The notes under the pieces were generated by a model. The model did no database searches. It had not been told where the DNA came from and saw nothing but the letters and a program-made list of their open reading frames with translations. The position numbers and the translations under genes were made by a program. A DNA stretch of 64,000 bases from Terriglobia bacterium (GTDB taxonomy: Bacteria > Acidobacteriota > Terriglobia > 20CM-2-55-15), in contig CBDCFM010000021.1 of assembly GCA_965216035.1 (NCBI GenBank), positions 4,236 through 68,235 of the forward strand, in the 5' to 3' direction. Positions 22,228 to 53,076 of the stretch are shown here, one piece after another (position 1 is the stretch's first letter; the number at the start of each line of letters is the position of its first letter).

Positions 22228-22289
22228 GTCAGAGCCCTGTTTCGTCTCACGTTTTTTCAACAATTCAATAGGGGAAACAGGGCTCTGAC
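22228..22289. repeat. perfect 16-bp inverted repeat with a ~30-nt loop immediately after ilvA (terminator or REP-like element)
   Basis: GTCAGAGCCCTGTTTC ... GAAACAGGGCTCTGAC, followed by ccattttcg. Confidence 0.35.
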
Positions 22290-22487
22290 GCCATTTTCGA
22301 GGGCCGTTAGCCGGGCATTGAAGGGACTCGGATCAAGATCCTGGAAAAAACCTCCCTTCCACCCGGCTGACAGACAGCAGGGGTGGACGACCTGTGGGAC
22401 AAGACTGTGGAACAGGCTTTTCGAGATATCATTAACGAGGACGGACACGCAACTGGAACACAGTATCGAAAAGGCAGGCCACACCCG

Positions 22488-24512: not shown

Positions 24513-24700
24513 TGCGTATTCCGGACCATCCTGAACACTGATTCCGATCCATCGTGAACACCGATTCCGGGATCGTGAACGCGGATTCCGGGATCCTGAA
24601 CAGTGATTCCGGTGATCCTGAACACCGATTCCGGCCATCGTGATCACTCGTCGGTAGCGAAGTTTGGAGCTTTTAGGTTCTCCTGAAGCACAGGAGGGCC

Positions 24701-26260
24701 TTGATGGCAACGAAACGACTACCGATGAGACAGATACGCGAGATTCTACGACTCAAACACGACCAACAGCTCAGCCACCGGGCGATCGCCAGCGCATGTC
24801 GCGTGGGCTTGGGCACCGTTGCGGACTACTTGGGACGGGCCAAGCAGGCCGGACTGGAATGGCCGCTGCCCGAAGACCTGGACGAGGCAGCGCTTGAAGC
24901 GCGGCTGTTTCCCCGCGCGGGACCGGGCTCCCGGGAACGGGTGGCTCCGGATGTAGAACGGATCCACCAGGAGTTGAAGCGTGTTGGAGTCACCCTGCAC
25001 CTGCTGTGGGAAGAGTACCGAGAAGCGAATCCAAAGGGATATGCCTACAGCCAGTTCTGTGAGATCTACCGGCGTTGGGCCCAGAAATTGAAGCCCTCGA
25101 TGCGACAGGTGCACCGCGCCGGAGAGAAGACCTTCATCGACTTTTCCGGCAAACGGCCACAGCTGACGGATCCACGGACGGGCAAAGCTATTCCAGTCGA
25201 GTTGTTCGTCGCTGTTCTGGGCGCCAGCGGTTACACCTACGCGGAAGCGACACCGAGCCAGAAACTCCCCGATTGGGTCGGCGTGCATATCCGCATGGTG
25301 GAGTTCTTCGGCGGATCGAGCCGGATCTGGGTTCCCGACCAACTCAAGAGTGCCATTACCCAGCCCTGCCGCTATGAAGCAGGCGTCAACCGTACCTACC
25401 AGGATGAGGCCGAACACTACGGCGCCGTTGTCATACCGGCCCGACCGCGGAAAGCTCGGGACAAAGCGAAAGTTGAATCGACCGTCCTGGTCGCACAGCG
25501 GTGGATCCTGGCCAGGATCCGGAATCGCACGTTCTTCAGTCTGGCCGACTTGAACGGAGCCATTCGAGAGTTGCTGGTGGAACTGAACCAGCGGCCGATG
25601 CAGAAGCTTCGAGTATCCCGCCTGGAACTCTACGAGCGGCTGGATCGACCGGCATTACAGCCCCTCCCGACCAACCGGTATGAACAGGCCGAGTGGAAGG
25701 ACTGTCGTGTCAGCATCGATTACCACATTACCGTGGACCGCCATCCTTACAGCGTGCCCTGCCAGTTGATCCATGAGAGGGTGGAAGCACGTTACACGGC
25801 GTCCATTGTCGAGGTCTACTACAAAGGCCGGCGCGTGACGTCCCATCGCCGTCGCTACGATCACAAGCCGTCGACTCTGTCCGAACATATGCCCAGTGCC
25901 CATCGGGCCCATGCGGAATGGACACCGTCCCGGCTGATTAGTTGGGCGGAGAAAACTGGCCCCAAGACCGGCCGCCTGGTCGAGGAGATCATGAAACGGT
26001 GGCCGCATCCGGAACAGGGGTACCGGGCCTGCCTGGGATTGATGAGTCTAGGTCGCCGCTCCGGCGCCGAGCGGCTCGAAGCCGCCAGTGCGCGGGCGCT
26101 GCACTTGCAGTCCTATAGCTACCGCACCGTCAAGAACATCCTGTCGTCGGCCCAGGACCGGTTGCCTTTCGGGGACACCGAAACCCCACCGACGCCCCAT
26201 CACGACAACATTCGCGGCGCCGCCTACTATGCGGACCCCGAGGAGACGCACTCATGCTAA
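24701..26260 (+). CDS. istA: IS21-family transposase IstA
   Basis: N-terminal HTH MRQIREILRLKHDQQLSHRAIASA and the IstA integrase core, 519 aa. Confidence 0.85.
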   Translation: MMATKRLPMRQIREILRLKHDQQLSHRAIASACRVGLGTVADYLGRAKQAGLEWPLPEDLDEAALEARLFPRAGPGSRERVAPDVERIHQELKRVGVTLHLLWEEYREANPKGYAYSQFCEIYRRWAQKLKPSMRQVHRAGEKTFIDFSGKRPQLTDPRTGKAIPVELFVAVLGASGYTYAEATPSQKLPDWVGVHIRMVEFFGGSSRIWVPDQLKSAITQPCRYEAGVNRTYQDEAEHYGAVVIPARPRKARDKAKVESTVLVAQRWILARIRNRTFFSLADLNGAIRELLVELNQRPMQKLRVSRLELYERLDRPALQPLPTNRYEQAEWKDCRVSIDYHITVDRHPYSVPCQLIHERVEARYTASIVEVYYKGRRVTSHRRRYDHKPSTLSEHMPSAHRAHAEWTPSRLISWAEKTGPKTGRLVEEIMKRWPHPEQGYRACLGLMSLGRRSGAERLEAASARALHLQSYSYRTVKNILSSAQDRLPFGDTETPPTPHHDNIRGAAYYADPEETHSC

Positions 26261-27012
26261 TGGAACAAACCCTGGAGAAGATGAACCAGATGAAGCTATC
26301 GGCCATGGTCGAGGCCCTGGAGCAGCAACGCCGCTCGAATCAGTACACGGATCTCGGCTTCGAGGAACGTCTGGGCCTACTGGTGGATGAGGAGTGGACG
26401 GCCCGGGAGCACCGCAAGCTCACCCGACGCCTGCGCGCGGCGAAGCTGCGCGACGCGACGGCATCGCTGGAAAACGTCGACTTCAAACATCGTCGCCGTC
26501 TGGACCGTTCCCAAGTCCTCGCCCTGGGCTCCTGCGGGTGGATCCAAGACCGGCACAATCTTCTCATCACCGGTCCGACCGGCATCGGAAAGAGTTTTCT
26601 GGCTTCGGCTTTCGTCGAACGCGCCTGCCGGCGGGGTTTTAACGCCACCTACGTCCGCATGCCTCGGCTCTTGCACCAACTGGCGGTCGGCCGTGGCGAC
26701 GGCTCCTACACCCGAGTCCTGGCCCGTCTGGCCAAAACCGATCTGCTGGCCATCGACGACTGGCTCCTGGCCCCGCTGCGCGACGCTGAACGCCGGGACC
26801 TGATCGAAGTCGTCGAGGAACGGAGCGAACGTTCCGCCATCTTGATCGCCAGCCAGCTCCCGGTCCCCGACTGGCACGGCGTCATTGGCGACCCGAACCA
26901 GGCCGACGCCATCTGCGATCGCCTCCTCCACAATGCGCACCGTATCGAACTGAAAGGGGCATTGATGCGGCAAACCAAGACCCAACCCAAGACGTTGAAG
27001 GAGTCCCGATGA
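26254..27012 (+). CDS. istB: IS21-family helper ATPase IstB
   Basis: Walker A LLITGPTGIGKSFLA. It overlaps the end of istA. Confidence 0.85.
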   Translation: MLMEQTLEKMNQMKLSAMVEALEQQRRSNQYTDLGFEERLGLLVDEEWTAREHRKLTRRLRAAKLRDATASLENVDFKHRRRLDRSQVLALGSCGWIQDRHNLLITGPTGIGKSFLASAFVERACRRGFNATYVRMPRLLHQLAVGRGDGSYTRVLARLAKTDLLAIDDWLLAPLRDAERRDLIEVVEERSERSAILIASQLPVPDWHGVIGDPNQADAICDRLLHNAHRIELKGALMRQTKTQPKTLKESR

Positions 27013-27401
27013 TCGGCGCACCGATGCATCCACACGCCGCCGCCAGGGGGTACTCCAGGCCGGCCCCGGACCCAATCGTCGCTCCTGCGCAATCCTCGCG
27101 CGAAGGAAGTGCGGGAATCCGGGTCCGGGCGCGGAACGCGCGCCTCACGCAGGGCACGGGGCCTGTGGAAACTGCCGCAGCCGTGCAAATGGGAATGGTG
27201 GCCTTCGGCCGACTTTCTCTTGATCATTTCCACCGCTGCTTGCAAAAGCCTCCGCAAAAAACGCTCCCGGCTTTCGCACAGTTACACACAGGCCGGCGGC
27301 GATTTATCACAATAATTTTGGAAAGGACTAAAACAGAGAAAACCTGGACTCTGAAAGGAATAAACTGAGACGCTAACCCGTCGCTTCGCTCCGGCGAGTG
27401 T

Positions 27402-29162
27402 TCACGATGGCCGGAATCGGTGTTCATGATTCCGGAACTGGTGTTCACGATCAGCGGAATACCCATTGAGCACGTGCTTGGGGAATTCCCTCCAGACCAA
27501 AGCCCTCGCCCGATCCAACATGTATTCATCCTGATCGAAATCGGGATCCAGTTCCAGCAGGATGCCCGCGATGGTGATCTGTGACTTAATAAAGAGCGCA
27601 ATGTTGAAGCGGGTTTGAAATCCGGCTGTGGCCAGGTCAACGATCAGCCTCTGAAGGGTCGGGAATACCTCGGACTTCTGCCCCACCGCTCGGTCCACGA
27701 TTTCACCTATCTTTTCGTGTTCTGCAGCAGACGCCGGTGGCCATTCCTCAATCAGCGCCCCCACATTATTCACGATACGCTTGGTGTTTCCGAGATGGAC
27801 TCCGAGGACCAGTTGAACGAGTTGTGCTCGCTGCGCCCGAGGGAAACTGCCGTAGAGTCCCCAATCCAAAAGGGCAATTTGGTACGGATTCGAGGCGTCT
27901 TCAGAAACATGGAAGACGTTGCCGGCGTGGGGATCACCGTGGAAGATGGCCTCTTCTGCTGAGGAAAATATTACATCGACCGTGAGAACGTCACTTAGAC
28001 GCTGGGCCATTTCCTTACGGTCACCCGGCTGGCCGGTGTGCGCATCCGTGATCTTATTTCCAGGGACAAACTCCATCGCTGTCACGTTTGGTGTTGAAAG
28101 CGGGTACAGATGAGGTACCCGGACTGCGGGGTTGCCGGCGTAGTAGGTTTCGGCCAAAGCCAAGTTCCGCTGCTCATCCACAATGCGGATTTCGCTCGAG
28201 AGTGCTGTTTTGACATCCCGAAAGGTGTCGGAGAGCGGAATGTCGCCAAGACCGTAGGCGCTGCTGTTTTCCTCGAAGAACAGGGAGAGTTGATCGAGTA
28301 TTTCAAGTTCCCGCGGCAGCGATTCCAGGACGTAGGGCTTGACGACCTTGAAAACGATATCTTCTTCGCTTTCTCTCTCTGCCTGGATGAGGGTGGCGCG
28401 GATCACGGCTCCGACGCTGGCTTCGGCCAAGATATCTTCAGCGAATCGGACTTGAAATGTGTCGATAGCTTCTTGACCGATGTCCTCCTCGATCAATCCG
28501 ACTATTTCTTCAGGATCTGAAGTCGCAATGCCGTTTTCCAGGGTCTGCAAAGCCATGCGGAGGTCCGGCGACAGGTCTGGATTACGAGCCAGAATCTGAC
28601 CAATCTTTTGCAGCGAGGGTGTCCTGTCAGTGAACTTGAGCAGCCGGTCTGCCCTGCCCGTACCTGCGGGCAGATAGGTCAAGTTTAAAATTCGCTCGAA
28701 AATCCGTTCGTCGCCCAACCCATCCAGGAAAAACAAGAGTGAATCGTGGACAACGGGAATCCAATCTGATGCGCTACCCGGGACAAGGTCGAGAATACTG
28801 GAATGGTGGATCAGCAATTCCAGAATCTCCCTACGGAACGGTTCCAGGTCGAGTGATCGAAGCAAGGTCAAGGCTTCAGAACGATGTACTTGCGGCGTAG
28901 TCCCGGCTGAGCGAGGACTGAGGAACTGCTGAACTATCGCCTGAGATTCGACATCCAATTCCGGCAGCAATGTATTCAGCAGACGGATGCCTGCCAGGTC
29001 GGCGTCGAAACGTGTGTAATGGGCGGGTGGCGTCGGCAGCTCCAGGTCGGCACCATCCGCCATGGGAGCGAGGCACAGGAGGGGGAGGATTACAGCATTT
29101 GAAAGAAATCGTCGCGTCATTAGTCGGTTTTTACAAAAACAACGGAAAGTCTTCCTCTGCAT
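27402..29162 (-). CDS. ABC1/UbiB-family atypical protein kinase; the last ~21 codons and the stop are derived from the IS21 end
   Basis: Kinase-like motifs KVVKP, HGDPHAGNV and LDWG. The N-terminus looks like a signal peptide (MTRRFLSNAVILPLLCLAPMA). Confidence 0.7.
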   Translation of the reverse strand: MQRKTFRCFCKNRLMTRRFLSNAVILPLLCLAPMADGADLELPTPPAHYTRFDADLAGIRLLNTLLPELDVESQAIVQQFLSPRSAGTTPQVHRSEALTLLRSLDLEPFRREILELLIHHSSILDLVPGSASDWIPVVHDSLLFFLDGLGDERIFERILNLTYLPAGTGRADRLLKFTDRTPSLQKIGQILARNPDLSPDLRMALQTLENGIATSDPEEIVGLIEEDIGQEAIDTFQVRFAEDILAEASVGAVIRATLIQAERESEEDIVFKVVKPYVLESLPRELEILDQLSLFFEENSSAYGLGDIPLSDTFRDVKTALSSEIRIVDEQRNLALAETYYAGNPAVRVPHLYPLSTPNVTAMEFVPGNKITDAHTGQPGDRKEMAQRLSDVLTVDVIFSSAEEAIFHGDPHAGNVFHVSEDASNPYQIALLDWGLYGSFPRAQRAQLVQLVLGVHLGNTKRIVNNVGALIEEWPPASAAEHEKIGEIVDRAVGQKSEVFPTLQRLIVDLATAGFQTRFNIALFIKSQITIAGILLELDPDFDQDEYMLDRARALVWREFPKHVLNGYSADREHQFRNHEHRFRPS

Positions 29163-30951: not shown

Positions 30952-31011
30952 TGCGATTGACTCCCATCCCCGTTCGTACGGGAAGCCGTCCCTCCGATGC
31001 CGCCGTTTAAG

Positions 31012-31351
31012 TTAGCAGCCCGTGGCAGAAGTCCCAAGGACCGCGCGCAGGGGTCTTCGGGTTGCAGGCGCGAAGTGAGGAGTGGGCACCGAGGTTTGAA
31101 ATCGAGGCCGCGGGCGCCGTCTTTTCATCGTGACCGGCCTTATCAATGCCGGACAAAGCCTGCGGGGCGCCTGCGGCCTCCGTTTGATACGTCGGTGGCC
31201 CCCCTGCGCCCGAAGGGTTACGGCGAAACGGGGCCGTCTTCGTTGTCGCCGACTCCTCCCAATGAATGCGCATTGTCTCGACGTCGTCTCCTAGAATCCG
31301 GCCCCGTTTGGCCGTAACGCGGTCCTTGGGACTTCTGCCACGGGCTACTAA
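31012..31351. mobile_element. MITE-like non-autonomous element (~340 bp) with 34-bp terminal inverted repeats (1 mismatch)
   Basis: TTAGCAGCCCGTGGCAGAAGTCCCAAGGACCGCG at 31012-31045 and its reverse complement, with TAGTAG for TAGCAG, at 31318-31351. The interior has nested complementarity and no coding capacity. Confidence 0.45.
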
Positions 31352-32631
31352 GCTTCGAGCGGTTGACCGCTCCTGTCGGGAAGCGTGAACACCAAAAGCG
31401 CGGCCAGAAGAAAGAATCCCGACGTCACGCCGAGCGCCAGCCCGATACCGATACCCGGCAACGCCCCCAGATAACCGATAACGAAAGGAGCGAGACCTCC
31501 GACCAGGCGTCCCAGGCTGAAGCTCGTTCCCTGGCCGGTCGCCCGCACCGATGTCGGAAACAGTTCGGCGATGAAACTGCCGAACATTGAAAGGTAACCG
31601 TGGCCGACGTAGCCGAGGAAGGGTCCGAGCAGCAAGAGGATCAGCGGGCTGCGCGCCATCTGTCCATATATCGGCACCAAAATGGCCGCCGCGAGCATGA
31701 AGAGGACAAAGGTGCGCCGGCGTCCGATTTCGTCCGCAATGAACCCGAAGGTGAGGTAGCCAAGGTATGCGCCGATCTGAACGGGAACAATCCACCCGAG
31801 TGAACCGACCACGCCCATACCCGCGCCCCCGTCCTCAATGGGTCGGGAGAGAAAAGCCGGTAGCCAGAAGAAGACGCCCCAGTAGGCGAACTGGACTGTG
31901 GAGCTGAGCAGGATGATCAAAAGCGTCCGGCCAATCAGGTCTCGACCGAAAATCACAGCGAACTGATTTCGGCCTTGAGTCCGCGGAGCGGCACGGTGTT
32001 CAGTCCAGAGATCCGGCTCGGGAACACTGCGCCGCACCCACAGCACCAGCAACGCCGGAGCCGCTCCCAGGGCAAACAACAGGCGCCAAGAGTCGTCGCC
32101 CAGCCAGGCCGGGCCCAGTATGACGGCACCGAGAACCGCGGCCAGGAGGTAGCCCAATGCCCAGCCTGTTTGCATGATGCTGATTGCCTTGTTGCGATGC
32201 GCGGGCGGCCACGTCTCGCTGATCAGCACGGCGCCTGTGGCCCATTCGCCACCCATACCGATTCCGAGCAAGGCGCGCCACAGCAACAGTTGGAGTAACG
32301 ATTGCGAAGTAGCGGTCCCGAGCGAGGCCAGCGAGAAGATCAGGATCGTGAACATCAGTGCGCGTGTCCGGCCGACGCGGTCTGCCACGAAACCGAAAGT
32401 GATGCCTCCGACAGCGGACGTTGCGAGCGCGACCGTCCCCAGGATGCCGGCAGTGGCGTCGCTGAACCCGAAGTAGACTGTGAGTTCGCTGACCGCGATT
32501 GCGTAGAGCATGAAATCCATCGCGTCCAACATCCAACCCAGCTTTGCTGCGAGCAGGATCTTCCATTGGTATCGCGAGATGGTCGAGTACCAGCGCATGG
32601 GTACCGAGATATCTGCTTCTACTCGGCTCAC
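31348..32631 (-). CDS. MFS transporter
   Basis: 12-TM MFS pattern (GxLaDrxGrR-like motif DRVGRTRAL). The stop codon lies within the MITE terminus. Confidence 0.8.
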   Translation of the reverse strand: MSRVEADISVPMRWYSTISRYQWKILLAAKLGWMLDAMDFMLYAIAVSELTVYFGFSDATAGILGTVALATSAVGGITFGFVADRVGRTRALMFTILIFSLASLGTATSQSLLQLLLWRALLGIGMGGEWATGAVLISETWPPAHRNKAISIMQTGWALGYLLAAVLGAVILGPAWLGDDSWRLLFALGAAPALLVLWVRRSVPEPDLWTEHRAAPRTQGRNQFAVIFGRDLIGRTLLIILLSSTVQFAYWGVFFWLPAFLSRPIEDGGAGMGVVGSLGWIVPVQIGAYLGYLTFGFIADEIGRRRTFVLFMLAAAILVPIYGQMARSPLILLLLGPFLGYVGHGYLSMFGSFIAELFPTSVRATGQGTSFSLGRLVGGLAPFVIGYLGALPGIGIGLALGVTSGFFLLAALLVFTLPDRSGQPLEA

Positions 32632-38362: not shown

Positions 38363-39298
38363 GTGAAACACAGCATGCAACCTGCGAACAGTCAGCCGAA
38401 CTTCGATGTTACCGTCCGCGTGGGATGCAGTCTCGTCTACGAAGTCACAGGCACGGCTTCGCTGCTGCTGAATCTTAGACTGAGTCCGGATCCCAGTCGC
38501 TCCGTACTCTTCGAGGCGCTGACGCTGGGCAGTGACCTTCCGTCTGAGGTATTTAGTGACAGCCACGGTAACCGCGTATGTCGCGTCACTCTCGCGCCGG
38601 GCACCAACTGTATCCGGCACGACGCAATCGTTGCGGTGTCCTCCCAAGTGGACAACCATGGTCTGATCACCAGCGTTCCGCAGGCTCCGGGGGATCTCCC
38701 GGCTCCGTTGCTGCGCTATACACTACCCAGCCGGTATTGCGACTCCGACAAGATGACTAATTTCGCCTGGGAGAAATTCGGCCCGGTCGAGCACGGAATC
38801 GGGCGAGTTCAGGCGATCAGCCGCTGGATTCACGAAAATTTCGAATATCGCTATATGTCGGGTAGCTCCAATTTGTCGGCATGGGACGCATTGCAGCGGG
38901 GTTACGGCGTTTGCCGTGATTTTGCGCACATCGCCGTCGCGCTCAATCGCACGTTCAACCTCCCAGCGCGCTATGTGACGGGGCACCTACCCGACATCGG
39001 TTTCCCCGAACCGGACAACCACATGGATTTCCATGCATATGCCGAAGTCTACATCGGTGGAACCTGGTTCACGACCGACCCCCGCTTCCATGTCCCGCGC
39101 ATCGGCCGCATCAGGGTTGGCTGGGGGCAAGATGCCGTAGATGCGGCGTTCTCGACAATCTTTGGCGGCGCCACGATGACGTACTTTCAGGTGTGGGCCT
39201 ACCAGGTGGCGCGTGGGTCTGTGAATGTGGGTGATCCAATCGATCTCACGCAGCGTCTGGACAATGCCTGGACGGTCCGGACGGACCCGGTGGGGTGA
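38363..39298 (+). CDS. transglutaminase-like cysteine protease superfamily protein with N-terminal Bact_transglu_N-like region
   Basis: Catalytic triad context GYGVCRDFAHIAVAL ... DFHAYAEVYIGGTWFTTDP. Confidence 0.75.
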   Translation: MKHSMQPANSQPNFDVTVRVGCSLVYEVTGTASLLLNLRLSPDPSRSVLFEALTLGSDLPSEVFSDSHGNRVCRVTLAPGTNCIRHDAIVAVSSQVDNHGLITSVPQAPGDLPAPLLRYTLPSRYCDSDKMTNFAWEKFGPVEHGIGRVQAISRWIHENFEYRYMSGSSNLSAWDALQRGYGVCRDFAHIAVALNRTFNLPARYVTGHLPDIGFPEPDNHMDFHAYAEVYIGGTWFTTDPRFHVPRIGRIRVGWGQDAVDAAFSTIFGGATMTYFQVWAYQVARGSVNVGDPIDLTQRLDNAWTVRTDPVG

Positions 39299-39450: not shown

Positions 39451-40176
39451 TTGTCGGCGGCTATGTTTGACCGAATCGTGTTGACTTGTGAACACGGCGG
39501 CAATCATATTCCGGCGAGATACGCGCCTCTCTTTAGTTCCGCTGCCGCAGAACTGGAAGGGCATCGAGGCTACGATGTGGGGGCTCTGGAGGTAGCCCGT
39601 TTCCTGGCGCGAAAGCTCGGGGTGGGGCTGTTCTCAGGCAGGGCGTCCAGATTGCTCGTCGATCTCAACCGGTCACTGGGCCACACGGGGCTCTTCTCCG
39701 AGTACGTGCAGGACCTCGATTCCGTAGAGCAGATGCGGATACTCCGACGCCATTACCATCCGTACAGAGACCGGGTTGAGAATGCGCTCCGGAGCGAGAC
39801 GAACCGTCGTCGCGTGTTACACCTCAGCATTCACAGTTTCACGCCGGAGTGGGATGGGGCACCGCGTCGGGCGGATGTCGGGCTGCTATACGATCCCCAG
39901 CGCAGCATCGAACGCCAGGCCTGCGCACGTCTGTTGGGCCGACTCAATGGTATTGATCCGACACTCACTGTGCGCCGCAACTATCCCTATCGCGGAACAG
40001 GCGATGGCTTCACCACCCATCTTCGAAAGACGCTGGCTTCAGATCGATATGCGGGTATCGAGATTGAACTGAATCAGGGAGGAGTCGCCTCGGGTCCGGG
40101 GCGTCGGCACATCGGGGCAGTTCTGGAAAACGCTATCCGACAGGAGCTGAGCCCCAGCCCTCGGCCCCCAGACTGA
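39451..40176 (+). CDS. N-formylglutamate amidohydrolase (FGase)-family zinc hydrolase
   Basis: LTCEHGGNHIP ... LHLSIHSFTP ... GIEIELNQ is typical of the family. Confidence 0.65.
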   Translation: MSAAMFDRIVLTCEHGGNHIPARYAPLFSSAAAELEGHRGYDVGALEVARFLARKLGVGLFSGRASRLLVDLNRSLGHTGLFSEYVQDLDSVEQMRILRRHYHPYRDRVENALRSETNRRRVLHLSIHSFTPEWDGAPRRADVGLLYDPQRSIERQACARLLGRLNGIDPTLTVRRNYPYRGTGDGFTTHLRKTLASDRYAGIEIELNQGGVASGPGRRHIGAVLENAIRQELSPSPRPPD

Positions 40177-40261
40177 CGGATTCAATCCTGTCGTTTAGCT
40201 AATAAGTCATTAATGGCACTGGACATCGAAGGGCCGTATCGTGCATAGAGTAGAAGGGGTG

Positions 40262-40430
40262 GCCCTGGCAGGCTTGGGGGGAAAAGGCTCGTTTTTCGGC
40301 AGTCCGCCATGCGGCACAGGATGTGCCACGATTTTCGATGGCTGTAAGCCATGCGAGAATTACACGTCTCGGATGGCGATGCTGAAAAAGTCATGGATGG
40401 CTTTTCGAGCATCCTGTTAGTGGGCTTGCC
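40262..40430. repeat. conserved ~150-nt intergenic element, copy A (palindrome GGCAC-N5-GTGCC at 40313-40327)
   Basis: Most positions are identical to 43875..44025 over more than 100 nt, with two short indels. Confidence 0.5.
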
Positions 40431-40448
40431 TGAGAGATCCCGTACGCT

Positions 40449-42977
40449 TTGAGGCCGCTGGCTGGAATCAGAGATCGCGCTATGGTGAACGTAAAAAATT
40501 TGGCATACGAGCCCTTACCGGGCCATTACGATGAATTGATGGCCCCCGACGGCTCCGTTCGCCCCCACTGGCGTCCTCTTGTTGACGTCCTGGAAGGCTT
40601 GGGCCCCGATGAATTGAATCGGAGGGTGCATGAGAGTGTGAGGATGGTTCGCGACAACGGAGCCACCTTTCAGTTCCAGAAGGATGTCGGCGTCCAAAGG
40701 GAACGTCCCTGGCCGCTGGACCTGATTCCCATGGTCATCGACAGGGCGGAGTGGGATGCTCTAGCTCAGGGCGTGGCCCAGCGTGCTCGGTTACTCAACA
40801 TGATTCTGGCTGATCTTTACGGTCCGCAGAAACTGCTCCGGGATCGGTTGCTTCCAGCGGAACTGCTCTACGCCCACCCAAGGTTTCTCCGGCCATGTTC
40901 GGGTATCGAGCCCATTGATGGTGTGTGGTTGACGGTATACGCCCTCGATCTTGCCCGTTCTGAGGACGGGAGCTGGTGGATCCTTAGCGATCGGACCGAT
41001 GCGCCTACGGGATCCGGATTTGCCCTGGAGAATCGGCTCGTGACGAATCGGGCCCTGTCCGAAGCATTTGAAGCATCGAGCGTCCGGCGGCTATCAGGAT
41101 ACTTTCGAACACATCGGTCCACCCTGGCCCGATTGGCGCCTCGGAACCAGGAAAACCCGCGCATCGTGCTCCTCTCGCCCGGACCCGAGACCGAAACCTA
41201 CTTTGAGCAAGCACTGCTGTCACGATACCTGGGCTACACACTGGTTGAAGGATCCGACCTCGTCGTCAGGGACCACCGTGTTTTTCTCAAGACGCTCGGT
41301 GGTTTGCTGCCCGTGGACGTCGTTTGGCGCCGCCAGGATTCCGAGTCGTGCGATTCGCTGGAACTGGGAGGTGGATCCTCCGCTGGTGCTCCCGGGCTGC
41401 TGGACTGTGTCCGTGGAGGTCACGTCACCATTGCCAATGCCCTGGGAAGCGGACTGGCGGAGTCGCCCGCGCTGATGGCATTCCTTCCCAACCTGGCGAA
41501 TCACCTCATCGGCGAAGACCTCCGAATTCCGTCCGTAGCGACCTGGTGGTGTGGGCAAGAGGGCCCGCGCACAGAAGTCCTGGACCGGCTGGGCGAGTTG
41601 GTGATCAAACCGGCCTTCCCGGGCCCGCGGAGGGAGCGTCGGTTCGGTCACGAGCTGGGGGGCGAAGAACGCATGGCTCTCAGAGACGACATCCTCGGAG
41701 AACCCCGCGCCTATCTCGCACAAGAGCAAATACCTCTCTCGACTACTCCCGTCGGAATCCCCGGTTCGCTGTCTCCACGGTTCATGGTCATCCGGGCGTT
41801 TGCAGTCTCCGACGGCCAATCCTACGCGGTTATGCCCGGCGGGCTCGGACGGGTTTCGCCGAGCACCGCGTCCTACGATGTGACGGTCCTCGGCGGGGGC
41901 AGCAGCAAGGACATCTGGGTTGTGGGCGAGTCCGATGAACTACCCGTCACGCTCCTGCCGAGCGCGCCACGTCCGATCGATGTCAGTCGCGCCACATTCG
42001 ATCTGCCCAGCCGCGTGGCTGAGAATCTCTACTGGCTTGGGCGTTACGCGGAACGACTGGACGCAGCCGCACGGCTGATTCGGGCGACCCTCCCCCTCCT
42101 GTTTGGAGAATCATCTCGTTCGTCTTCCGCATTGAGCGGCGCTCTCAGCTTTCTGGAAGAACTCGGATACGCTGAACACAAGGCCGAATGGTCAACCACC
42201 CGGGAGCTCGAAGACGCTTTGGAACGTGCGATCGGGTTGGCTGTGGCGGAGTCGGACCGTAAGGGGAGTTTCGGGTGGCAGATTTTCCATCTTCACCGGA
42301 AGGCCCGCTCGCTGGGTGATCGGCTTTCAGTGGACGCGTGGAACATAATCTCGCAGCTCGAATCCGACTATGCGGCTGGAAACTCGCTTCCCCTCGAACG
42401 GGGACTCCCCGAACTACTCGACCGCATCGTTATTGCCCTGACCGGCTTCAGTGGTGCTGTGGGGGACGCGATGACCCGGGGTCACGGCTGGCGCTTTCTG
42501 GATATCGGACGGAGGATCGAGCGTGCTCTGCAGGTGATCGAGCTGTTGCGACATGGGTTGTTTCGTGTGGCCGAAGACGAAAGGGCGCGGATCGAGCTGC
42601 TCTTGGTTGCCGCTGACAGCACAATGACCTATCGATCTCGATACTTGACCTCACTGCAGGCGAATCTCACGATGGATCTCTTGCTGATCGATGAAGCCAA
42701 CCCTCGCGGGCTGGCCTTCCAGCTGCGCCGCCTCAAGGAGCATGTCGAAAGGTTGCCGGACGTCGATACGGTGGCCCGCCGTTCTGCCGAATCGTGGCGC
42801 CTGACCGACGCGATGGCGGCGGTCGAACTCGCTGAAATCGAGTTGCTGGCACGGGTGGAGGATGGGCGACGCGACGGCCTCGGGCAATTACTCGATCGCG
42901 TCAGCGGCGATCTCTCCCAACTCTCGGAGCACTTGACACGCGACTACCTGACCCATGCCCGGCCGTCGCCCCAGTGA
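40449..42977 (+). CDS. fused circularly permuted ATP-grasp type 2 (N-terminal) and alpha-E domain (C-terminal) protein
   Basis: The N-terminal ~480 aa are colinear with the standalone CP-ATP-grasp at 45035..46504. The C-terminus starts with the alpha-E motif SRVAENLYWLGRYAER, 842 aa. The ATG at 40482 is an alternative start. Confidence 0.75.
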   Translation: MRPLAGIRDRAMVNVKNLAYEPLPGHYDELMAPDGSVRPHWRPLVDVLEGLGPDELNRRVHESVRMVRDNGATFQFQKDVGVQRERPWPLDLIPMVIDRAEWDALAQGVAQRARLLNMILADLYGPQKLLRDRLLPAELLYAHPRFLRPCSGIEPIDGVWLTVYALDLARSEDGSWWILSDRTDAPTGSGFALENRLVTNRALSEAFEASSVRRLSGYFRTHRSTLARLAPRNQENPRIVLLSPGPETETYFEQALLSRYLGYTLVEGSDLVVRDHRVFLKTLGGLLPVDVVWRRQDSESCDSLELGGGSSAGAPGLLDCVRGGHVTIANALGSGLAESPALMAFLPNLANHLIGEDLRIPSVATWWCGQEGPRTEVLDRLGELVIKPAFPGPRRERRFGHELGGEERMALRDDILGEPRAYLAQEQIPLSTTPVGIPGSLSPRFMVIRAFAVSDGQSYAVMPGGLGRVSPSTASYDVTVLGGGSSKDIWVVGESDELPVTLLPSAPRPIDVSRATFDLPSRVAENLYWLGRYAERLDAAARLIRATLPLLFGESSRSSSALSGALSFLEELGYAEHKAEWSTTRELEDALERAIGLAVAESDRKGSFGWQIFHLHRKARSLGDRLSVDAWNIISQLESDYAAGNSLPLERGLPELLDRIVIALTGFSGAVGDAMTRGHGWRFLDIGRRIERALQVIELLRHGLFRVAEDERARIELLLVAADSTMTYRSRYLTSLQANLTMDLLLIDEANPRGLAFQLRRLKEHVERLPDVDTVARRSAESWRLTDAMAAVELAEIELLARVEDGRRDGLGQLLDRVSGDLSQLSEHLTRDYLTHARPSPQ

Positions 42978-43872
42978 TTCCACGATGAGCGTTACGGCCG
43001 GGGAACGGACTCTGATCGTCTCACACCGAACGCGATATACATACGCCGAGCTTGTCTCACATTCGCTCCACAGGGGCTTTCTGACACCCCGGACGACTCC
43101 GTACCAGGACGTACGCGTCAGCCGATTTACCATCGATCCTCCGCCTGCGGGCTCGACGACCCATGATGACTATTTCGGAAACCGAGTCTCGCTGTTCATG
43201 ATCGATGCGCCTCATAACGAGTTGATCGTTGAGGCCCAGAGCGAGCTGACCATCCGTCCGAACCCGCTCCTGCATTCGGAGATTCCGACCTGCAATCTGA
43301 ATATCGAGAGCGTTCGCCAGCGGATCCACCAGCCGGAGTCGCCCGAAGACCTGCAAGTCTATGAATTCTGCTTCAACTCGCCCCACGTGTCTCAGAGTTC
43401 GGAGTTGGCCCGCTACGCGTCTTCCTGCTTCACCCAACATGAAGACTTTCTGGCCGGCGTGGGGGCGCTGATGCACCGAATCCATTCTGGATTTCGCTAC
43501 GATCCCACGGTTACGACCGTTTCGACCCCGGTTTCCGAAGTGTTCGTCCACAAACACGGCGTGTGCCAGGATTTTGCGCATCTCATGATCGCGTGTCTGC
43601 GGTCCCTTGGCCTGGCTGCGCGATACGTCAGCGGTTACCTCGTGCCCGGCCCCGATGTAATCGGGGCCCAGGCTTCCCACGCCTGGGTCGCGGCTTACTG
43701 TTCGGGAATCGGATGGACGGATTTCGATCCGACCAACGACGTGGCGCCCTCGGGGAGTCACATTACTCTGGCCTGGGGTCGCGACTACTCCGATGTCAGC
43801 CCGTTCCGGGGCGTTATTTTTGGGGGCGGGGAACACCGGGTATCGGTCGAAGTCTCCGTGTCGCCAGAATAG
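42955..43872 (+). CDS. transglutaminase-like protein (Bact_transglu_N plus TGase core)
   Basis: IVSHRTRYTYAELVSHSL N-domain, HGVCQDFAHLMIA, SHAWVAAYCSGIGWTDFDPTND. The ATG at 42985 is an alternative start 8 nt after the upstream stop. Confidence 0.8.
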   Translation: MPGRRPSDSTMSVTAGERTLIVSHRTRYTYAELVSHSLHRGFLTPRTTPYQDVRVSRFTIDPPPAGSTTHDDYFGNRVSLFMIDAPHNELIVEAQSELTIRPNPLLHSEIPTCNLNIESVRQRIHQPESPEDLQVYEFCFNSPHVSQSSELARYASSCFTQHEDFLAGVGALMHRIHSGFRYDPTVTTVSTPVSEVFVHKHGVCQDFAHLMIACLRSLGLAARYVSGYLVPGPDVIGAQASHAWVAAYCSGIGWTDFDPTNDVAPSGSHITLAWGRDYSDVSPFRGVIFGGGEHRVSVEVSVSPE

Positions 43873-43874
43873 GA

Positions 43875-44025
43875 GGCTGGGGAAAAACGCTCGTTTTTCC
43901 TCGAGTCTGCTATGCGGCACAAGATGTGCCACGATTTTCGATGGCTGTCAGCCATTGAAAATGTGAGCCATGCGGGAATCACACTTCTCGGATGGCTTTT
44001 TCAGCATCCTGATAGTGCCCACCAC
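43875..44025. repeat. conserved ~150-nt intergenic element, copy B (palindrome GGCAC-N5-GTGCC at 43916-43930)
   Basis: It starts 3 nt after the TG2 stop and is the same element as copy A. Confidence 0.5.
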
Positions 44026-44052: not shown

Positions 44053-45030
44053 TTATTCGGTTTGCGATCCTTCGTCCGCCGGTGCCGCCTCAGCCGGTTC
44101 GGGATCGGCGCAAAACGTTTCCAGGATCGCAGAGCTGGCATCATTCAGCTTCGTCTGCAGGACGTCGATGAAGTCGTGCACCCCCTCGGCTATGATCTCA
44201 TCCACGTGCATATAGTCCAGGTAGGCCCGCAGTCGGCCGAGTACCTGTTCGGCACGATTCTGGAACGTCGAGCCGGGCGTCTCTGAGATCGCTCGCACCG
44301 CTTCTTCCGCCTCGGTAACGCAGTGCCGGATGGACCGCGGGAACGCCCTGTCGAGAACCAGAAAAGCGACGAGGCGTTCCGGAATGATCCGTTGGTGCCG
44401 CTTTCTGTACATCTGCAACGCGCTGGTGGACCGCAACAGCGCCGCCCAAAGAATGTCGCCGTAGGGCCGGACAACCGACGGATCCTCCGGCAGCGAAAAC
44501 AGGTATCGCACGTCGAGCATACGGGAAGTCTTATCGGCCCGCTCGATCATCCGGCCCAGACGAAAGAAATGCCAACCCTCGTCATGAGACATCGTAGTGT
44601 CAGTAATGCCACTGATCAACCGGCAGGTCCGGACGACGCCTCTAAAGAAATCCTGAGACGAATTCATCGTCTCGGTAGCGGTTCGAAGCTTCAAATGTAA
44701 GAAGTTCAACTCCTCCCACATTGCAAGGGTGATGAAGTCACGCGCGGTATTGGCATTCGACCGTGCGGCATTGACACTGAACAGGATCGAGTTGGGGTTG
44801 TTGAGATCGTAAGTCATGAACCGGATGACGTTGTCGGCACTGATCACGTCGTACTTCGACTCAAACAGCTCACGGACTCCCAGCGCTTTAACCAGAGGCT
44901 CCCAATGACCGACATCCGATGGCAAATCCAGGGTCAGGTACGAATTCACGGAAATCAGCCGCGCGGTGTTTTCAGCGCGCTCCAGGTATCGGCTGCACCA
45001 GTACAGGGATTCGGCAACGCGGCTGAGCAT
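44053..45030 (-). CDS. alpha-E domain protein
   Basis: MLSRVAESLYWCSRYLERAENTARL is the alpha-E signature. Confidence 0.75.
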   Translation of the reverse strand: MLSRVAESLYWCSRYLERAENTARLISVNSYLTLDLPSDVGHWEPLVKALGVRELFESKYDVISADNVIRFMTYDLNNPNSILFSVNAARSNANTARDFITLAMWEELNFLHLKLRTATETMNSSQDFFRGVVRTCRLISGITDTTMSHDEGWHFFRLGRMIERADKTSRMLDVRYLFSLPEDPSVVRPYGDILWAALLRSTSALQMYRKRHQRIIPERLVAFLVLDRAFPRSIRHCVTEAEEAVRAISETPGSTFQNRAEQVLGRLRAYLDYMHVDEIIAEGVHDFIDVLQTKLNDASSAILETFCADPEPAEAAPADEGSQTE

Positions 45031-45034
45031 CAGG

Positions 45035-46504
45035 TCACGGACCTCTGCCAGGAAGATTCTGGGCCTTCGCCGTTTCTCCCGACAACACCCAGGTGTCCTT
45101 ACTGCCGCCGCCCTGAGACGAATTGACGACGAGGGATCCTTTCTTCAGTGCAACTCGGGTCAGTCCTCCAGGCATGACATAAATGTCTTCGCCATAAAGA
45201 ACGTACGGCCTCAAGTCGACGTGGCGCCCTTCGAACCCGCTCCCGGTGATCACCGGCACCCGCGACAGCGACAGAGTGGGTTGAGCAACATAGTTTCGCG
45301 GATTCTCTCGGATCAAGCGGCGAAAAGATTCGCAGTCGGCCTTGCTCGCATGCGGGCCAACGAGCATGCCGTATCCCCCGGCTTCGTTGGCGCTCTTGAC
45401 AACCAGGGTTTCCAGATGTTCCAGGACGTGTTGACGGTCTTTGCTATCCCAGCAGACAAATGTTGGAACGTTGGCCAGGACGGGATCCTCTCCGAGGTAG
45501 TATCGGATGACTTTCGGTATGTATGCATAGACAGCCTTGTCATCCGCGATCCCGCAGCCCGGGGCGTTCGCCAGCGCCACACGCCCCTTTCTATAGGCTG
45601 CAAAGATCCCGGGTACGCCGAGGCAGGTGTCTTTCCGGAATGCCAGCGGGTCAAGGAAGTCGTCATCGATCCTCCGATAGAGCACGTCGACCCGCCTGGG
45701 GCCCCGGGTCGTCCGCATGATCAGGTCGCCATCCAGGATCGCCAGATCACTCCCCTCGACGAGCTCGACACCCATTTCCCTTGCAAGAAAGGAGTGTTCA
45801 AAGTATGCGGAGTTGTAGATTCCGGGAGTCAAAACCGCAACGGTGGGGTTCTCCTGGCCCACGGCCAGCGATTCAAGGGTGGACAGCAAATGGCTCGGGT
45901 AGTCGCTCACCGGTCGGACGTTCGAATTCTGGAAGGCGACGGGAAACGTTTCCTTGAGAACCCTTCGATTTTCCAGAACATAGGAGACTCCGGAAGGACA
46001 GCGGAGGTTGTCTTCGAGCACGTAGTACTGCCCGTCCGTATCGCGCACGAGGTCCGCACCGTTGATATGACTCCAGACGCTCCGCGGCGGATCGAGGCCC
46101 ATGCAAACTTCGCGGAAAGACTGCGAGGACAGGATCAGTTCCCGAGGCACGACCCCGTCCTTCAGGATCTTCTGATCATGGTAGAGGTCATCAATGAAGA
46201 GGTTCAGTGCCAGCATACGCTGGCAAAGGCCACGCTCAAGGGTTTCCCATTCGGGGGCCTCGACGATCCGGGGAATGATGTCGAACGGAAAGATGCGCTC
46301 CGTCCCCGCGTTGTCTTCATACACCGTGAAGGTCACGCCTGCTCCGTAGAAAGCCTGTTCTGCGGCCTTCTGTCGAGCATGGATTTCCGAAATCGGAAGT
46401 CCCCGGATCCGTTCCGCAAGGGGGCGGGCTCCGGCGCGGGGTTGCCCGCGCGATACAAACATTTCGTCGTGGAAACCCGTCGGATCGTATTGACTGAACG
46501 GCAT
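45035..46504 (-). CDS. circularly permuted ATP-grasp type 2 protein
   Basis: 489 aa, colinear with the CP_ATPgrasp_2 family and with the N-terminal half of 40449..42977. Confidence 0.8.
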   Translation of the reverse strand: MPFSQYDPTGFHDEMFVSRGQPRAGARPLAERIRGLPISEIHARQKAAEQAFYGAGVTFTVYEDNAGTERIFPFDIIPRIVEAPEWETLERGLCQRMLALNLFIDDLYHDQKILKDGVVPRELILSSQSFREVCMGLDPPRSVWSHINGADLVRDTDGQYYVLEDNLRCPSGVSYVLENRRVLKETFPVAFQNSNVRPVSDYPSHLLSTLESLAVGQENPTVAVLTPGIYNSAYFEHSFLAREMGVELVEGSDLAILDGDLIMRTTRGPRRVDVLYRRIDDDFLDPLAFRKDTCLGVPGIFAAYRKGRVALANAPGCGIADDKAVYAYIPKVIRYYLGEDPVLANVPTFVCWDSKDRQHVLEHLETLVVKSANEAGGYGMLVGPHASKADCESFRRLIRENPRNYVAQPTLSLSRVPVITGSGFEGRHVDLRPYVLYGEDIYVMPGGLTRVALKKGSLVVNSSQGGGSKDTWVLSGETAKAQNLPGRGP

Positions 46505-51758: not shown

Positions 51759-53076
51759 TGAACGGCCGGGAACATCATTGACAGAATAGTCCAGGCACAT
51801 CCTTTACAGTTTGTACCTCTTTCTCATTCTATTCCCCAAAGCATCTTGAATGGTAAAGGTCCGTTCGTCCATTTGTCCGAGACGAACGGTGCCGAAGTAG
51901 ACATCCCAGACGCCGTCGTCGACTTCCTCGAGTCCGACGTACTCACCTTCAAGGGTGTGGGTGATTGGAACACGATGGGCCGACCACCGGAATCCCCCGT
52001 TCCGACTGACCAGTCGCGTTTCGAAATGAGACGGATACTCGATGGGAGGCAGGCCCAACGGAAACTCCCGTGAAGAGGTTTGATAGCGGGAGTCGGGCGT
52101 TTCCTGGTCCAGCGCCTCATGGGGACGCACAGTGTTGAATTCCTCAACAAAACGATTGAACCGGAATTGCTGAGCCCGCATCGTGGCCGCTGGCGGCCGA
52201 GTGGTCTCTTGTTTCAAGGTTTTGTGCATGCGTTCGTGTCGGCCGTTTTGATCTGGCCGGCCGGGCTGAATCAATTCGGGGAAGATTCCGAGGCGGATCC
52301 ACCAGACCGATAGCCGGCTCAGTCGCCCGATGGCCGTGGTGGCGAACGGCGGCCCGTTATCGGTCCGGATGATTGCAGGGAGACCGAAGTTCCGGAAGAC
52401 ACTCTTGAATACGGACTTCGCGCGAACATGATTAGTCGAGTAGAGGCCCTTACATGCGAGCAGATACCGGGTGCAACCGTCGGTGATCGTCAACGGATAG
52501 CAATAGATGCCATCCCCAGTTTTAAACTCGCCTTTATAGTCCGCACACCAGACATCATTGGACCGATCCATTGAAGTCACGGGCTTGCCCGGATGACCCG
52601 GATAGGTGCGTCTCCGCTTCTTCTCCACAAGCCCATGACGTTTCAGCAGTTCCGAGATCGTCGATCGGGCGGGCCAGTCGACCTCGGGATGCCGGGTATT
52701 CAAGATCTTAAGAAGCTTCTTGGCCCCCCAGTGAGGATGTTTGCGGCGCAGATCGATCACCCGCCGCACCACATCGTCTGACGTCCGATGCGGGCAGCCG
52801 ACAGGACGACGGGAACGCTCCTCCAATCCGGATTGGCCATTCTCCAAGAATCTGTCAATCCACTTATATCCGGTGGGCCGGCTCACCCCGTAGCGCGCAC
52901 ACAGTTCGACGATCGAGAAAGATCGAGTAAGATAATCGGCAATAAATAATCGTTTTTGATCCATGGTCGTTGATTGATCCCAGGGCATATGAAGTCCTCC
53001 ACGGAGGACTTCATCGTGATCGATCTGTAAACCATGTACCCGGACAGATATGTAAACGATGTACCCGGACCGTACC
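51759..53076 (-). mobile_element. IS481-family insertion sequence, copy 2 (identical to copy 1), target duplication ATC
   Basis: Same 1318 bp as 1064..2381. The triplet atc occurs at 51756-51758 and 53077-53079. Confidence 0.85.
51804..52988 (-). CDS. IS481-family DDE transposase
   Basis: Identical to 1109..2293. Confidence 0.85.
   Translation of the reverse strand: MPWDQSTTMDQKRLFIADYLTRSFSIVELCARYGVSRPTGYKWIDRFLENGQSGLEERSRRPVGCPHRTSDDVVRRVIDLRRKHPHWGAKKLLKILNTRHPEVDWPARSTISELLKRHGLVEKKRRRTYPGHPGKPVTSMDRSNDVWCADYKGEFKTGDGIYCYPLTITDGCTRYLLACKGLYSTNHVRAKSVFKSVFRNFGLPAIIRTDNGPPFATTAIGRLSRLSVWWIRLGIFPELIQPGRPDQNGRHERMHKTLKQETTRPPAATMRAQQFRFNRFVEEFNTVRPHEALDQETPDSRYQTSSREFPLGLPPIEYPSHFETRLVSRNGGFRWSAHRVPITHTLEGEYVGLEEVDDGVWDVYFGTVRLGQMDERTFTIQDALGNRMRKRYKL

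Follow-up and report, generated by a model that had tools for sequence, protein, structure and literature searches.

The amidoligase gene cluster of a Terriglobia bacterium (Acidobacteriota) contains two conserved intergenic elements, here called copies A and B, which lie in a 64-kb window of contig CBDCFM010000021.1; by the window we mean this whole stretch of 64,000 nucleotides. [quoted passage not shown] As its ends and insertion sites suggest, this MITE was most likely moved by a DDE transposase of the IS5 family. A first-pass annotation of the window had noticed the two elements, and they are present where it placed them. A 37-nt core (ATGCGGCACArGATGTGCCACGATTTTCGATGGCTGT) occurs at exactly two sites in the window, 40309-40345 and 43912-43948, with 0 expected from 100 shuffles, and MAFFT, BLAST and nhmmer agree on an alignable element of ~150 nt. 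Copies A and B are identical at 119 of 142 aligned positions (~84%), and the 64-kb window holds no further full copy.

A dispersed family in two phyla

To place the two elements among their relatives, we scanned the 185,579 species genomes of the Genome Taxonomy Database (GTDB) with a degenerate 20-nt core (ATTTTCGAKGGCYGTNAGCC). The 81 stretches retrieved comprised ~13 chance matches and ~69 copies, full or partial, whose nhmmer E-values reach as low as 1e-30 and whose cmsearch scores reach 186 bits. Each copy occupies a separate, unrelated locus, at scattered positions on contigs of megabase size. The hosts are three Terriglobia metagenome-assembled genomes (MAGs), six Sedimenticola MAGs, and members of Woeseiaceae, Lysobacterales, Thiolapillus, Wenzhouxiangellaceae and unclassified Gammaproteobacteria. 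The family is one of soil Acidobacteria and marine Gammaproteobacteria, and so spans two phyla. Two of the Terriglobia MAGs carry at least 6 and at least 5 copies, and one Sedimenticola MAG carries at least about 21. A metagenome scan with the 27-nt centre of the element added 46 stretches, all MITE-sized and the largest ~270 nt, bringing the family to at least 110 copies at distinct loci over many MAGs.

Intact copies are almost all exactly 169 nt long including the flanking duplications, the element itself measuring ~161 bp. Copies inside one MAG are near-identical, as exemplified by five in CBDAOY01, which points to recent bursts of transposition. The element had no BLAST match in plasmid and phage collections, and viral contigs scanned with a pattern yielded none either. 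An Rfam scan of the window and of intact copies, for which permissive thresholds were also tried, found no Rfam 15 family at gathering score, and neither the core sequence nor any connection of MITEs with CsrA turned up in literature searches. With no Rfam family and no literature, plasmid, phage or viral match, the family is apparently undescribed.

Among the explanations offered by the first-pass annotation, a small repeat family proves correct, the element being dispersed, multi-copy and present in more than one phylum. The annotation had also paired two outcomes that would speak against a functional element, namely a REP-like repeat dispersed over many unrelated loci and the lack of a covariation-supported structure. 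The first was found; the second was not, as the structure is strongly supported.

Some members depart from the standard length or setting. Four metagenomic copies (L100:2382-2601, L122:2959-3178, L109:2535-2754 and L101:359-626) measure 220-268 nt and contain an extra internal insertion. At L039:155-385 (plus strand), two type II copies, a subfamily described below, stand head to tail with one junction in common, in a tandem or nested arrangement. A 'Proteobacteria bacterium' MAG encodes a group I intron (Rfam RF00028, 73.7 bits, above threshold; L074:7363-7601, plus strand) ~70 nt upstream of a MITE copy.

Terminal repeats and target-site duplication

The termini of intact copies are ~19-nt inverted repeats (CAGGCTGYTGAAAAA), in which the left repeat CAGGCTGCTGAAAAA(C) is the reverse complement of the right repeat (G)TTTTTCAGCAGCCTG. 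The corresponding repeats of copies A and B are degenerate and still recognisable. From left to right, the element is composed of a 4-bp duplication; the left repeat (CAGGCTGYTGAAAAAC), which forms the 5' arm of hairpin H1; hairpin H2, with a GGA loop; the central palindrome H3; H4, a hairpin that covaries freely; hairpin H5, with a 3' arm that continues into the right repeat; and the second 4-bp duplication.

The flanking tetranucleotides are identical in 15 of 33 independent copies of the type I subfamily, compared with 5.5 expected, and differ by one base in 15 more. Identical pairs include TTAG/TTAG (seven times), CTAA/CTAA (twice), TTAA/TTAA and, in copy B, ATAG/ATAG. The pairing TTAG/CTAA, which would be expected if the flanks belonged to the inverted repeat, never occurs among the 33. 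Because the flanks co-vary as direct and never as inverted repeats, we regard them as a target-site duplication. CTAG, TTAG, CTAA and TTAA together account for 20 of the 33 left flanks and 26 of the 33 right flanks, affording the consensus YTAR.

Divergent subfamilies duplicate 4 bp as well (CATA, TTTG, TTGA, TGTA). Type II, from Sedimenticola, has the ends GGAGGGTGTCGCAAAAG; types III (L098:4440-4596) and IV (L094:1131-1291) were both chance finds in fetched loci. The 4-bp duplication of types II to IV is not at YTAR, and the target of type II is a REP-like palindrome, whose loop it enters. This is shown by two Sedimenticola MAGs that form a clean filled/empty pair, one carrying the insertion (L025) and the other the empty site (L026).

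The REP-like palindrome of Sedimenticola, CCCTCTCCC(C)-N4-(G)GGGAGAGGG, can be seen for example at L079:952-1110, at L018:1860-2018 and around position 3310 of L026. Type II MITEs land precisely in its loop, so that one repeat family serves as the landing site of another.

Orientation relative to flanking open reading frames (ORFs) is approximately random, with 13 sense and 16 antisense copies in tandem contexts as judged by crude longest-ORF gene calling, and 7 sense and 5 antisense among copies abutting a stop codon. The element has no coding capacity. Plus-strand ORFs are unconserved across the family, extending what the first-pass annotation had observed for copies A and B. Overall, the family combines the attributes that define a MITE: inverted repeats, a target duplication, a small non-coding sequence in many copies, and filled/empty polymorphism.

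Empty sites in related amidoligase clusters

The gene context of copies A and B matches the account given in the first-pass annotation and comprises the following genes:

38363-39298, TG1 transglutaminase gene
39451-40176, FGase gene
40482-42977, gene for a fused circularly permuted ATP-grasp/alpha-E ligase
42955-43872, TG2 transglutaminase gene
44053-45030, minus strand, alpha-E gene, convergent
45035-46504, minus strand, ATP-grasp gene

The nearest relatives of the ligase are encoded at loci L004 (84% protein identity), L005 and L006 (both 82%). In all three, the order TG1-FGase-ligase-TG2 is conserved, with the convergent alpha-E and ATP-grasp genes coming next, and the family model detects no copy in any of them. 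Their FGase-ligase intergenic region is 150-157 nt long versus 305 nt in the window, and their TG2-alpha-E region is 27 or 83 nt versus 180 nt. When copy A is excised so that one 4-mer remains, the window intergenic region becomes colinear with that of L005 from a conserved upstream block to the start codon. The copy A site is thus filled in the window and empty in L005 and L004, and the copy B site is filled in the window and empty in L004; the TAG stop codon of TG2, where copy B begins, is common to the relatives. The absence of copies from the relatives, their shorter intergenic regions and the colinear flanks together identify both window copies as insertions.

This comparison bears directly on the idea that A and B act together in cis to regulate the amidoligase cluster, be it through an operator, a leader or 3' untranslated region (3'UTR) RNA, or an antisense sigma-54 promoter, as the first-pass annotation had proposed among its candidates. 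Copies A and B do share one orientation and bracket the ligase-TG2 pair, the minus strand of H2 reads TGGCAC-N5-GTGC in both, and a sigma-54 activator gene lies 5 kb upstream in relative L004. Yet the closest syntenic relatives lack both copies at the same positions, the element adjoins unrelated genes in other phyla and in either orientation, both window copies carry disabling deletions, and no Rfam family matches. The sigma-54 resemblance is literally correct, being one mismatch from TGGCAC-N5-TTGC with GG-N10-GC spacing, but it is not a conserved property of the family: H2 has N6 spacing in gammaproteobacterial type I copies, and type II replaces GGCAC/GTGCC with GATGC/GCATC. Because any GGCAC-N5-GTGCC palindrome generates this spacing automatically, the match is a by-product, and such a promoter would fire antisense into FGase and TG2. 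The cis-regulatory reading is largely refuted, and we now consider it hardly tenable. As far as the sequences can tell, the elements are not a control element specific to the amidoligase genes.

For annotation of the window, a false lead is thereby removed, leaving an amidoligase cluster without a special shared regulatory element. Scans around both copies found no promoter-like site, and the sole terminator-like signal was a weak hairpin, H4 in copy B. If the copies now affect the amidoligase genes, this would be a by-product of insertion, with copy A adding a 156-nt structured leader and copy B a structured 3' end between convergent genes.

A better candidate for control of the cluster than the MITE is a block immediately upstream of copy A (40220-40256, plus strand; TGGACATCGA-N9-TCGTGCATAGAGTAGAAG). 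It is kept nearly base for base in L004 and L005, in an intergenic region that has otherwise diverged. The block fits neither a sigma-70 scan nor the sigma-54 consensus, and its conservation suggests that it is likely the native promoter or leader of the ligase-TG2 operon.

Two further features of the cluster emerged from the comparison. The window ORF for the ligase starts ATG GTG AAC. The relatives possess only the GTG (TCT GTG AAC or AAC GTG AAC), which makes the GTG at 40485 a possible true start. In addition, the unfused ATP-grasp and alpha-E genes (44053-46504, minus strand) constitute a second pair convergent to the fused ligase-TG2 pair, such that two paralogous amidoligase sets stand back to back in the window, and likewise in L004 to L006.

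Two decayed copies in the window

The family alignment defines the following features of the two copies:

40265-40420, plus strand, MITE copy A, 156 nt counting the degenerate 4-mers at its flanks, CTGG and TTAG; a decayed relic between the conserved promoter- or leader-like block and the start of the fused ligase gene
40269-40306, plus strand, left terminal inverted repeat and H1 of copy A, degenerate (CAGGCTTGGGGGGAAAAGG versus family consensus CAGGCTGCTGAAAAAC)
40311-40329, plus strand, H2 of copy A, GCGGCAC-AGGAT-GTGCCAC, loop GGA retained
40330-40377, plus strand, H3/H4 of copy A, the 5' arm and loop of H3 fused directly to the 3' part of H4
40378-40416, plus strand, H5 and right terminal inverted repeat of copy A, loop CAUGGAUG with GGA, repeat TTTTCGAGCATCCTG
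43869-44015, plus strand, MITE copy B, 147 nt counting its perfect 4-bp direct repeat ATAG...ATAG; inserted precisely at the TAG that ends the TG2 transglutaminase gene, between two convergent genes
43873-43909, plus strand, left terminal inverted repeat and H1 of copy B
43914-43932, plus strand, H2 of copy B, GCGGCAC-AAGAT-GTGCCAC, loop GGA mutated to AGA
43933-43963, plus strand, H3 of copy B, intact, GATTTTCGATGGCT-GTC-AGCCATTGAAAATG
43967-44011, plus strand, H4 of copy B, intact; of H5, just the 3' arm follows, with the right inverted repeat
22253-22322, plus strand, a probable third, highly degenerate family fragment (3' arm of H1 to H3), between threonine dehydratase and prephenate dehydratase genes

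With the family model R1, cmsearch scored copy A at 64.4 bits (E = 1.6e-15) across the full model (1-169) and copy B at 90.4 bits (E = 2.3e-22); nhmmer with the family hidden Markov model (HMM) gave E = 4e-27 for copy A. The first-pass annotation had located both elements correctly, and judged against the family it was their ends that required correction, to the limits listed above with the 4-bp flanking repeats included. The sub-hairpins it had discerned are real and correspond to family hairpins, GAAAA...TTTTC being H1, the GGCAC-N5-GTGCC palindrome H2, and CGATTTTCG...ATGGCTGTAAGCCAT the 5' half of H3.

The short internal duplications that had been taken as private to each copy are in fact the reverse, since both segments are present in the family consensus and each copy has lost one of them. 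Copy A lost 16 nt (TGAAAATGTGAGCCAT) between two GCCAT repeats, a deletion that removed H3's 3' arm along with the 5' arm of H4. Copy B lost 24 nt (GATGCTGAAAAAGTCATGGATGGC) between two GGATGGC repeats, and with them the 5' arm and loop of H5. The left repeat is mutated alike in both (GGGG for GCTG), which places A and B in the same lineage-specific subfamily, and their identity to a Terriglobia copy is 84% and 87%, respectively. One deletion per copy combined with point changes in the left repeat makes mobility very unlikely, and A and B are very probably old, immobile relics.

The fragment at 22253-22322 was detected by nhmmer (E = 7.2e-6) with a family HMM built without the window sequence and was undetected by the covariance model. 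We consider it a probable fragment of the same family.

A conserved array of five hairpins

The covariation check proposed in the first-pass annotation revealed a strongly supported secondary structure of five hairpins, H1 to H5. In a set of 24 diverse sequences, 93.6% of the cells pair, and compensatory double changes occur in 23 of the 62 pairs. All five structure measures exceeded every one of 500 shuffles, and sliding the partners by 1-3 columns reduced pairing to 38-51%. An intact copy gave folding z-scores of -10.7 for the plus strand and -11.7 for the minus strand, indicating that both strands fold equally well. This structure belongs to the mobile element and not to the amidoligase cluster.

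The individual hairpins differ in what their conservation may reflect. The terminal repeats make up the 5' arm of H1 and the 3' arm of H5, and the arms that pair with them could reflect paired transposase sites. The sequences of H2 and H4 vary freely with pairing kept, which implies that real base pairing is under constraint, whether in RNA or in single-stranded DNA. H3 is nearly invariant in the main data set, in part through ascertainment bias, the pattern used for both collection scans having come from within H3; in the two divergent subfamilies (types III and IV) it covaries. Plus-strand G-U pairs outnumber A-C by 227 to 71 cells but by only 40 to 32 columns, the excess coming mostly from three inherited positions.

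Five strong hairpins with compensatory changes would also be accounted for if the element moved as single-stranded DNA via an HUH/Y1 enzyme, either as a palindrome-associated element derived from IS200/IS605 or as a REP/RAYT-type repeat. The folding of both strands noted above (z = -10.7 and -11.7) and the insertion of type II in the loop of the REP-like palindrome CCCTCTCCC...GGGAGAGGG are in keeping with such a mechanism. IS200/IS605 elements, however, are not known to have terminal inverted repeats or target duplications, and REPs measure 20-40 nt, whereas this family possesses 19-nt inverted repeats and a co-varying 4-bp duplication. Copy B and the L025/L026 pair already suggest that empty sites carry one 4-mer and filled sites two. 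Furthermore, no tnpA(Y1) or RAYT gene was seen near any copy, although no systematic search was made. We therefore rejected membership in IS200/IS605 or REP/RAYT because of the inverted repeats and the 4-bp duplication, and we consider single-stranded movement very improbable.

Two other classes of structured element were also rejected. For an integron attC site, the ends read CAGGCTG...CAGCCTG in place of R''/R' (RYYYAAC ... GTTRRRY), the copies are solitary and dispersed, and relatives possess the same genes without the element. A riboswitch was dismissed on its defining features.

For a MITE, it is unusual that the same 169-nt five-hairpin architecture is maintained, with compensatory changes, across subfamilies that differ in their ends and target preferences. 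It is likewise unusual that such an element spans two phyla, with loops that keep a CsrA-type motif and a centre that keeps an IHF-type motif.

Possible mobilization by an IS5-family transposase

Returning to the MITE assignment, we compared the element with insertion sequences of the IS5 family. IS5 makes 4-bp YTAR duplications (PMC5009759), and terminal repeat sequences are available for the IS5 group and IS903B (PMC10569121). By eye, the type IV end GGAAGGTCTGAAAAAT agrees with the IS5-group repeat GGAAGGTGCGAA(C/T)AAG at 12 of 16 positions, and the type II end agrees with the IS5-group repeat at 13 of 16 with one gap. The type I end matches the IS903B repeat GGCTTTGTTGAATAAATC at 12 of 14 positions with a 2-nt gap, again by eye.

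In the pathway we envisage, a cut-and-paste DDE transposase of the IS5 family, encoded at another site in the genome, would have acted on the element in trans. Copy B would have landed on the TAG stop codon of TG2, a position that is explained by the presence of TAG or TAA in YTAR sites, and copy A would have landed in the leader between the promoter-like block and the fused ligase gene. Each copy would afterwards have acquired point changes in the left repeat and one slippage deletion.

Several observations weigh against this assignment. No transposase gene flanked by family repeats was found in ~0.95 Mb of fetched loci plus the window, which were searched for inverted pairs 0.4-5 kb apart around an ORF, and no transposase follows the truncated copy at L033. 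Every H3-containing sequence in the collections is MITE-sized, so the interior has no obvious origin by deletion from a known insertion sequence. The free covariation of H2 and H4 is a property that double-stranded cut-and-paste does not need and that implies a constraint beyond transposase recognition. The 4-mers flanking copy A, CTGG and TTAG, differ at two positions, and the copy number for the window's own organism refers to the 64-kb window only. The IS21 and IS481 elements of the window were considered as partners and rejected, since their ends are unrelated.

Other mobile DNA in the window includes a second MITE-like element at 31008-31353 (~346 bp), whose 34-nt terminal inverted repeats show 97% complementarity (TTAGCAGCCCGTGGCAGAAGTCCCAAGGACCGCG). 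Compared by eye, the beginning of this repeat agrees with that of the present family at ~15 of 22 positions, which suggests that related transposases have been active in this genome. Two IS481-family insertion sequences (1064-2381 and 51759-53076, 1318 bp each) encode a transposase of 424-429 aa with HTH, rve and LZ_Tnp_IS481 domains; their 100% identity indicates recent transposition. An IS21-family element (24551-27451) comprises istA (24701-26260, with a Mu-transposase C-terminal domain and rve) and istB (26254-27012), and its terminal inverted repeats are repeated at each end.

Motifs in the element interior

The central palindrome may have a role in transposition itself. H3 might be a binding site for IHF or a relative, in which case bending could help the ends of the 161-bp element to meet, as is reported for Correia elements. 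The IHF consensus is WATCAANNNNTTR, with the core TCAA-N4-TTR. On the bottom strand of H3, the main family has TTTCAATGGCTTA, L098 has TTTCAATCACTTG and L094 has AATCAATCGCTTG, so that TCAA-N4-TTR is kept in three subfamilies while N4 and the inner stem change, and the L094 version matches WATCAANNNNTTR perfectly. A near-fixed G-T 'wobble' in H3 (23 of 24 sequences) leaves TCAA on one strand only. In copy B, the bottom strand of H3 (TCAATGGCTGA) is one T off the family TCAA-N4-TTR. The element is also rich in A5 and T5 tracts, and IS5 is comparable: midway along its terminal 177 bp lie A-tracts and an IHF site (TCAA...TT), and the region has a bend (PMC2753651).

Against an IHF site, the outer stem of H3 changes in a truly compensatory manner (CATTTTCGAT/ATTGAAAATG versus CAAAATCGAT/ATTGATTTTG), which argues for base pairing and not only for a protein site. 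The search pattern accounts in part for how little H3 varies in the main data set, the A-tracts are not cleanly phased on a rough count, and the motif is backed by only two divergent subfamilies. We hold this reading tentatively, as possible though rather doubtful.

A second reading concerns the interior of the element and is compatible with its being a MITE. When transcribed in the sense direction, the element might act as a structured RNA module displaying CsrA/RsmA-binding hairpins, either as a mobile Rsm-like decoy or as a means of placing neighbouring genes under Csr control. CsrA prefers the sequence RUACARGGAUGU, selected by systematic evolution of ligands by exponential enrichment (SELEX), with GGA in a hairpin loop (PMC4347634), and it occurs in Gammaproteobacteria and some Acidobacteria (PMC4682653). 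The H2 loop presents GGA in 64 of 69 distinct copies above a stem that covaries (GGCAC, GGTAC, GGGAC, GATGC); ACARGGAUGU occurs in 15 copies and the full SELEX consensus in 5. GGA is present in the H5 loop of 50 of the 69 copies, and both GGA loops recur in the two divergent subfamilies, where the search pattern did not select them. One type II copy aligned with the full Rfam RsmW model at 42.1 bits (E about 4e-6 for that small search), and copy A retains both GGA loops in sense orientation in the ligase leader.

Each of these points has a counterweight. The RsmW gathering score of 52 bits was reached by no copy (0 of 20 type II loci), and type I gave no Rsm match at all. Loop-exposed GGA motifs are indeed multiple, but at two per element they lie at the low end, known sponges having more, and random orientation means that half of the copies would show UCC in place of GGA. 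The H5 loop is without GGA in the Terriglobia subfamily, as is H2 in copy B, which lost it. The GacA/UvrY box (consensus TGTAAG-N6-CTTACA, PMC4682653) is missing, the H3 loop offering just one half of it, TGTAAG. The surplus of G-U over A-C cells on the plus strand derives mostly from the three inherited positions and shrinks to 40 versus 32 when counted by column, and the SELEX match was spotted post hoc. We consider a CsrA/RsmA module unlikely.

The two motifs could in principle be combined in a mobile module whose interior is selected for a role after insertion. Two CsrA/RsmA-motif hairpins would flank an IHF-type bend site, the whole would be spread by an IS5-like transposase and horizontal transfer, and copy A would have put the ligase under such control; we regard this scheme as improbable. 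If it were true, CsrA decoys or CsrA-responsive leaders and 3' ends would be scattered over the genomes of Acidobacteriota and Gammaproteobacteria. More generally, should either motif be functional, the family would lend itself well to the study of mobile elements as carriers of ready-made regulatory structure; otherwise it is just another MITE. On present sequence evidence, the CsrA and IHF readings are leads and not findings.

Comparison with known systems

Among dispersed repeats, REP/BIME and ERIC sequences resemble the MITE family in being intergenic and palindromic, in occurring in either orientation and in often lying right after stop codons. REPs are far shorter and are not known to have terminal inverted repeats or target duplications, and we know of no demonstrated duplication pattern in ERIC like that of the MITE family.

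A parallel in size and form is provided by the Correia elements (NEMIS/CREE) of Neisseria, which are MITEs of ~100-160 bp with terminal inverted repeats, many intergenic copies, a folded transcript and a central IHF site. The present family shares the size, the terminal inverted repeats, the many intergenic copies and the strong folding, in the absence of any sequence similarity. To our knowledge, Correia elements duplicate TA and are confined to Neisseria, whereas the MITE described here duplicates 4 bp and spans Acidobacteriota and several gammaproteobacterial orders.

With RsmW and the Csr/Rsm clan (RF02809, CL00106), the element has in common a run of hairpins with GGA in the first and last loops. 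The match falls below the gathering threshold in every copy tested and lies mostly in architecture, with few letters in common. The MITE differs further in being multi-copy and mobile, in lacking its own promoter and in presenting two GGA loops only.

The 177-bp 'IB' end region of IS5 is similar in size, rich in A-tracts and equipped with a TCAA...TT IHF-type site near its middle, and it can alter the expression of an adjacent promoter (PMC2753651). IB is part of a full IS5, and the likeness is one of features.

The family can also be compared with the IS5 family and its MITEs. Shared characteristics include the 4-bp YTAR duplication, a bias towards non-coding DNA with insertion at TAG or TAA, and terminal repeats that, judged by eye, resemble those of the IS5 group and IS903 (GGAAGGTCTGAAAAAT versus GGAAGGTGCGAATAAG, 12 of 16 positions). 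In contrast, no cognate transposase was found for the MITE, some subfamilies do not insert at YTAR, and type II instead enters a REP-like loop. The interior also sets the family apart, being a conserved, fixed-length array of five hairpins (169 nt with duplications) and not a random remnant of insertion-sequence ends.

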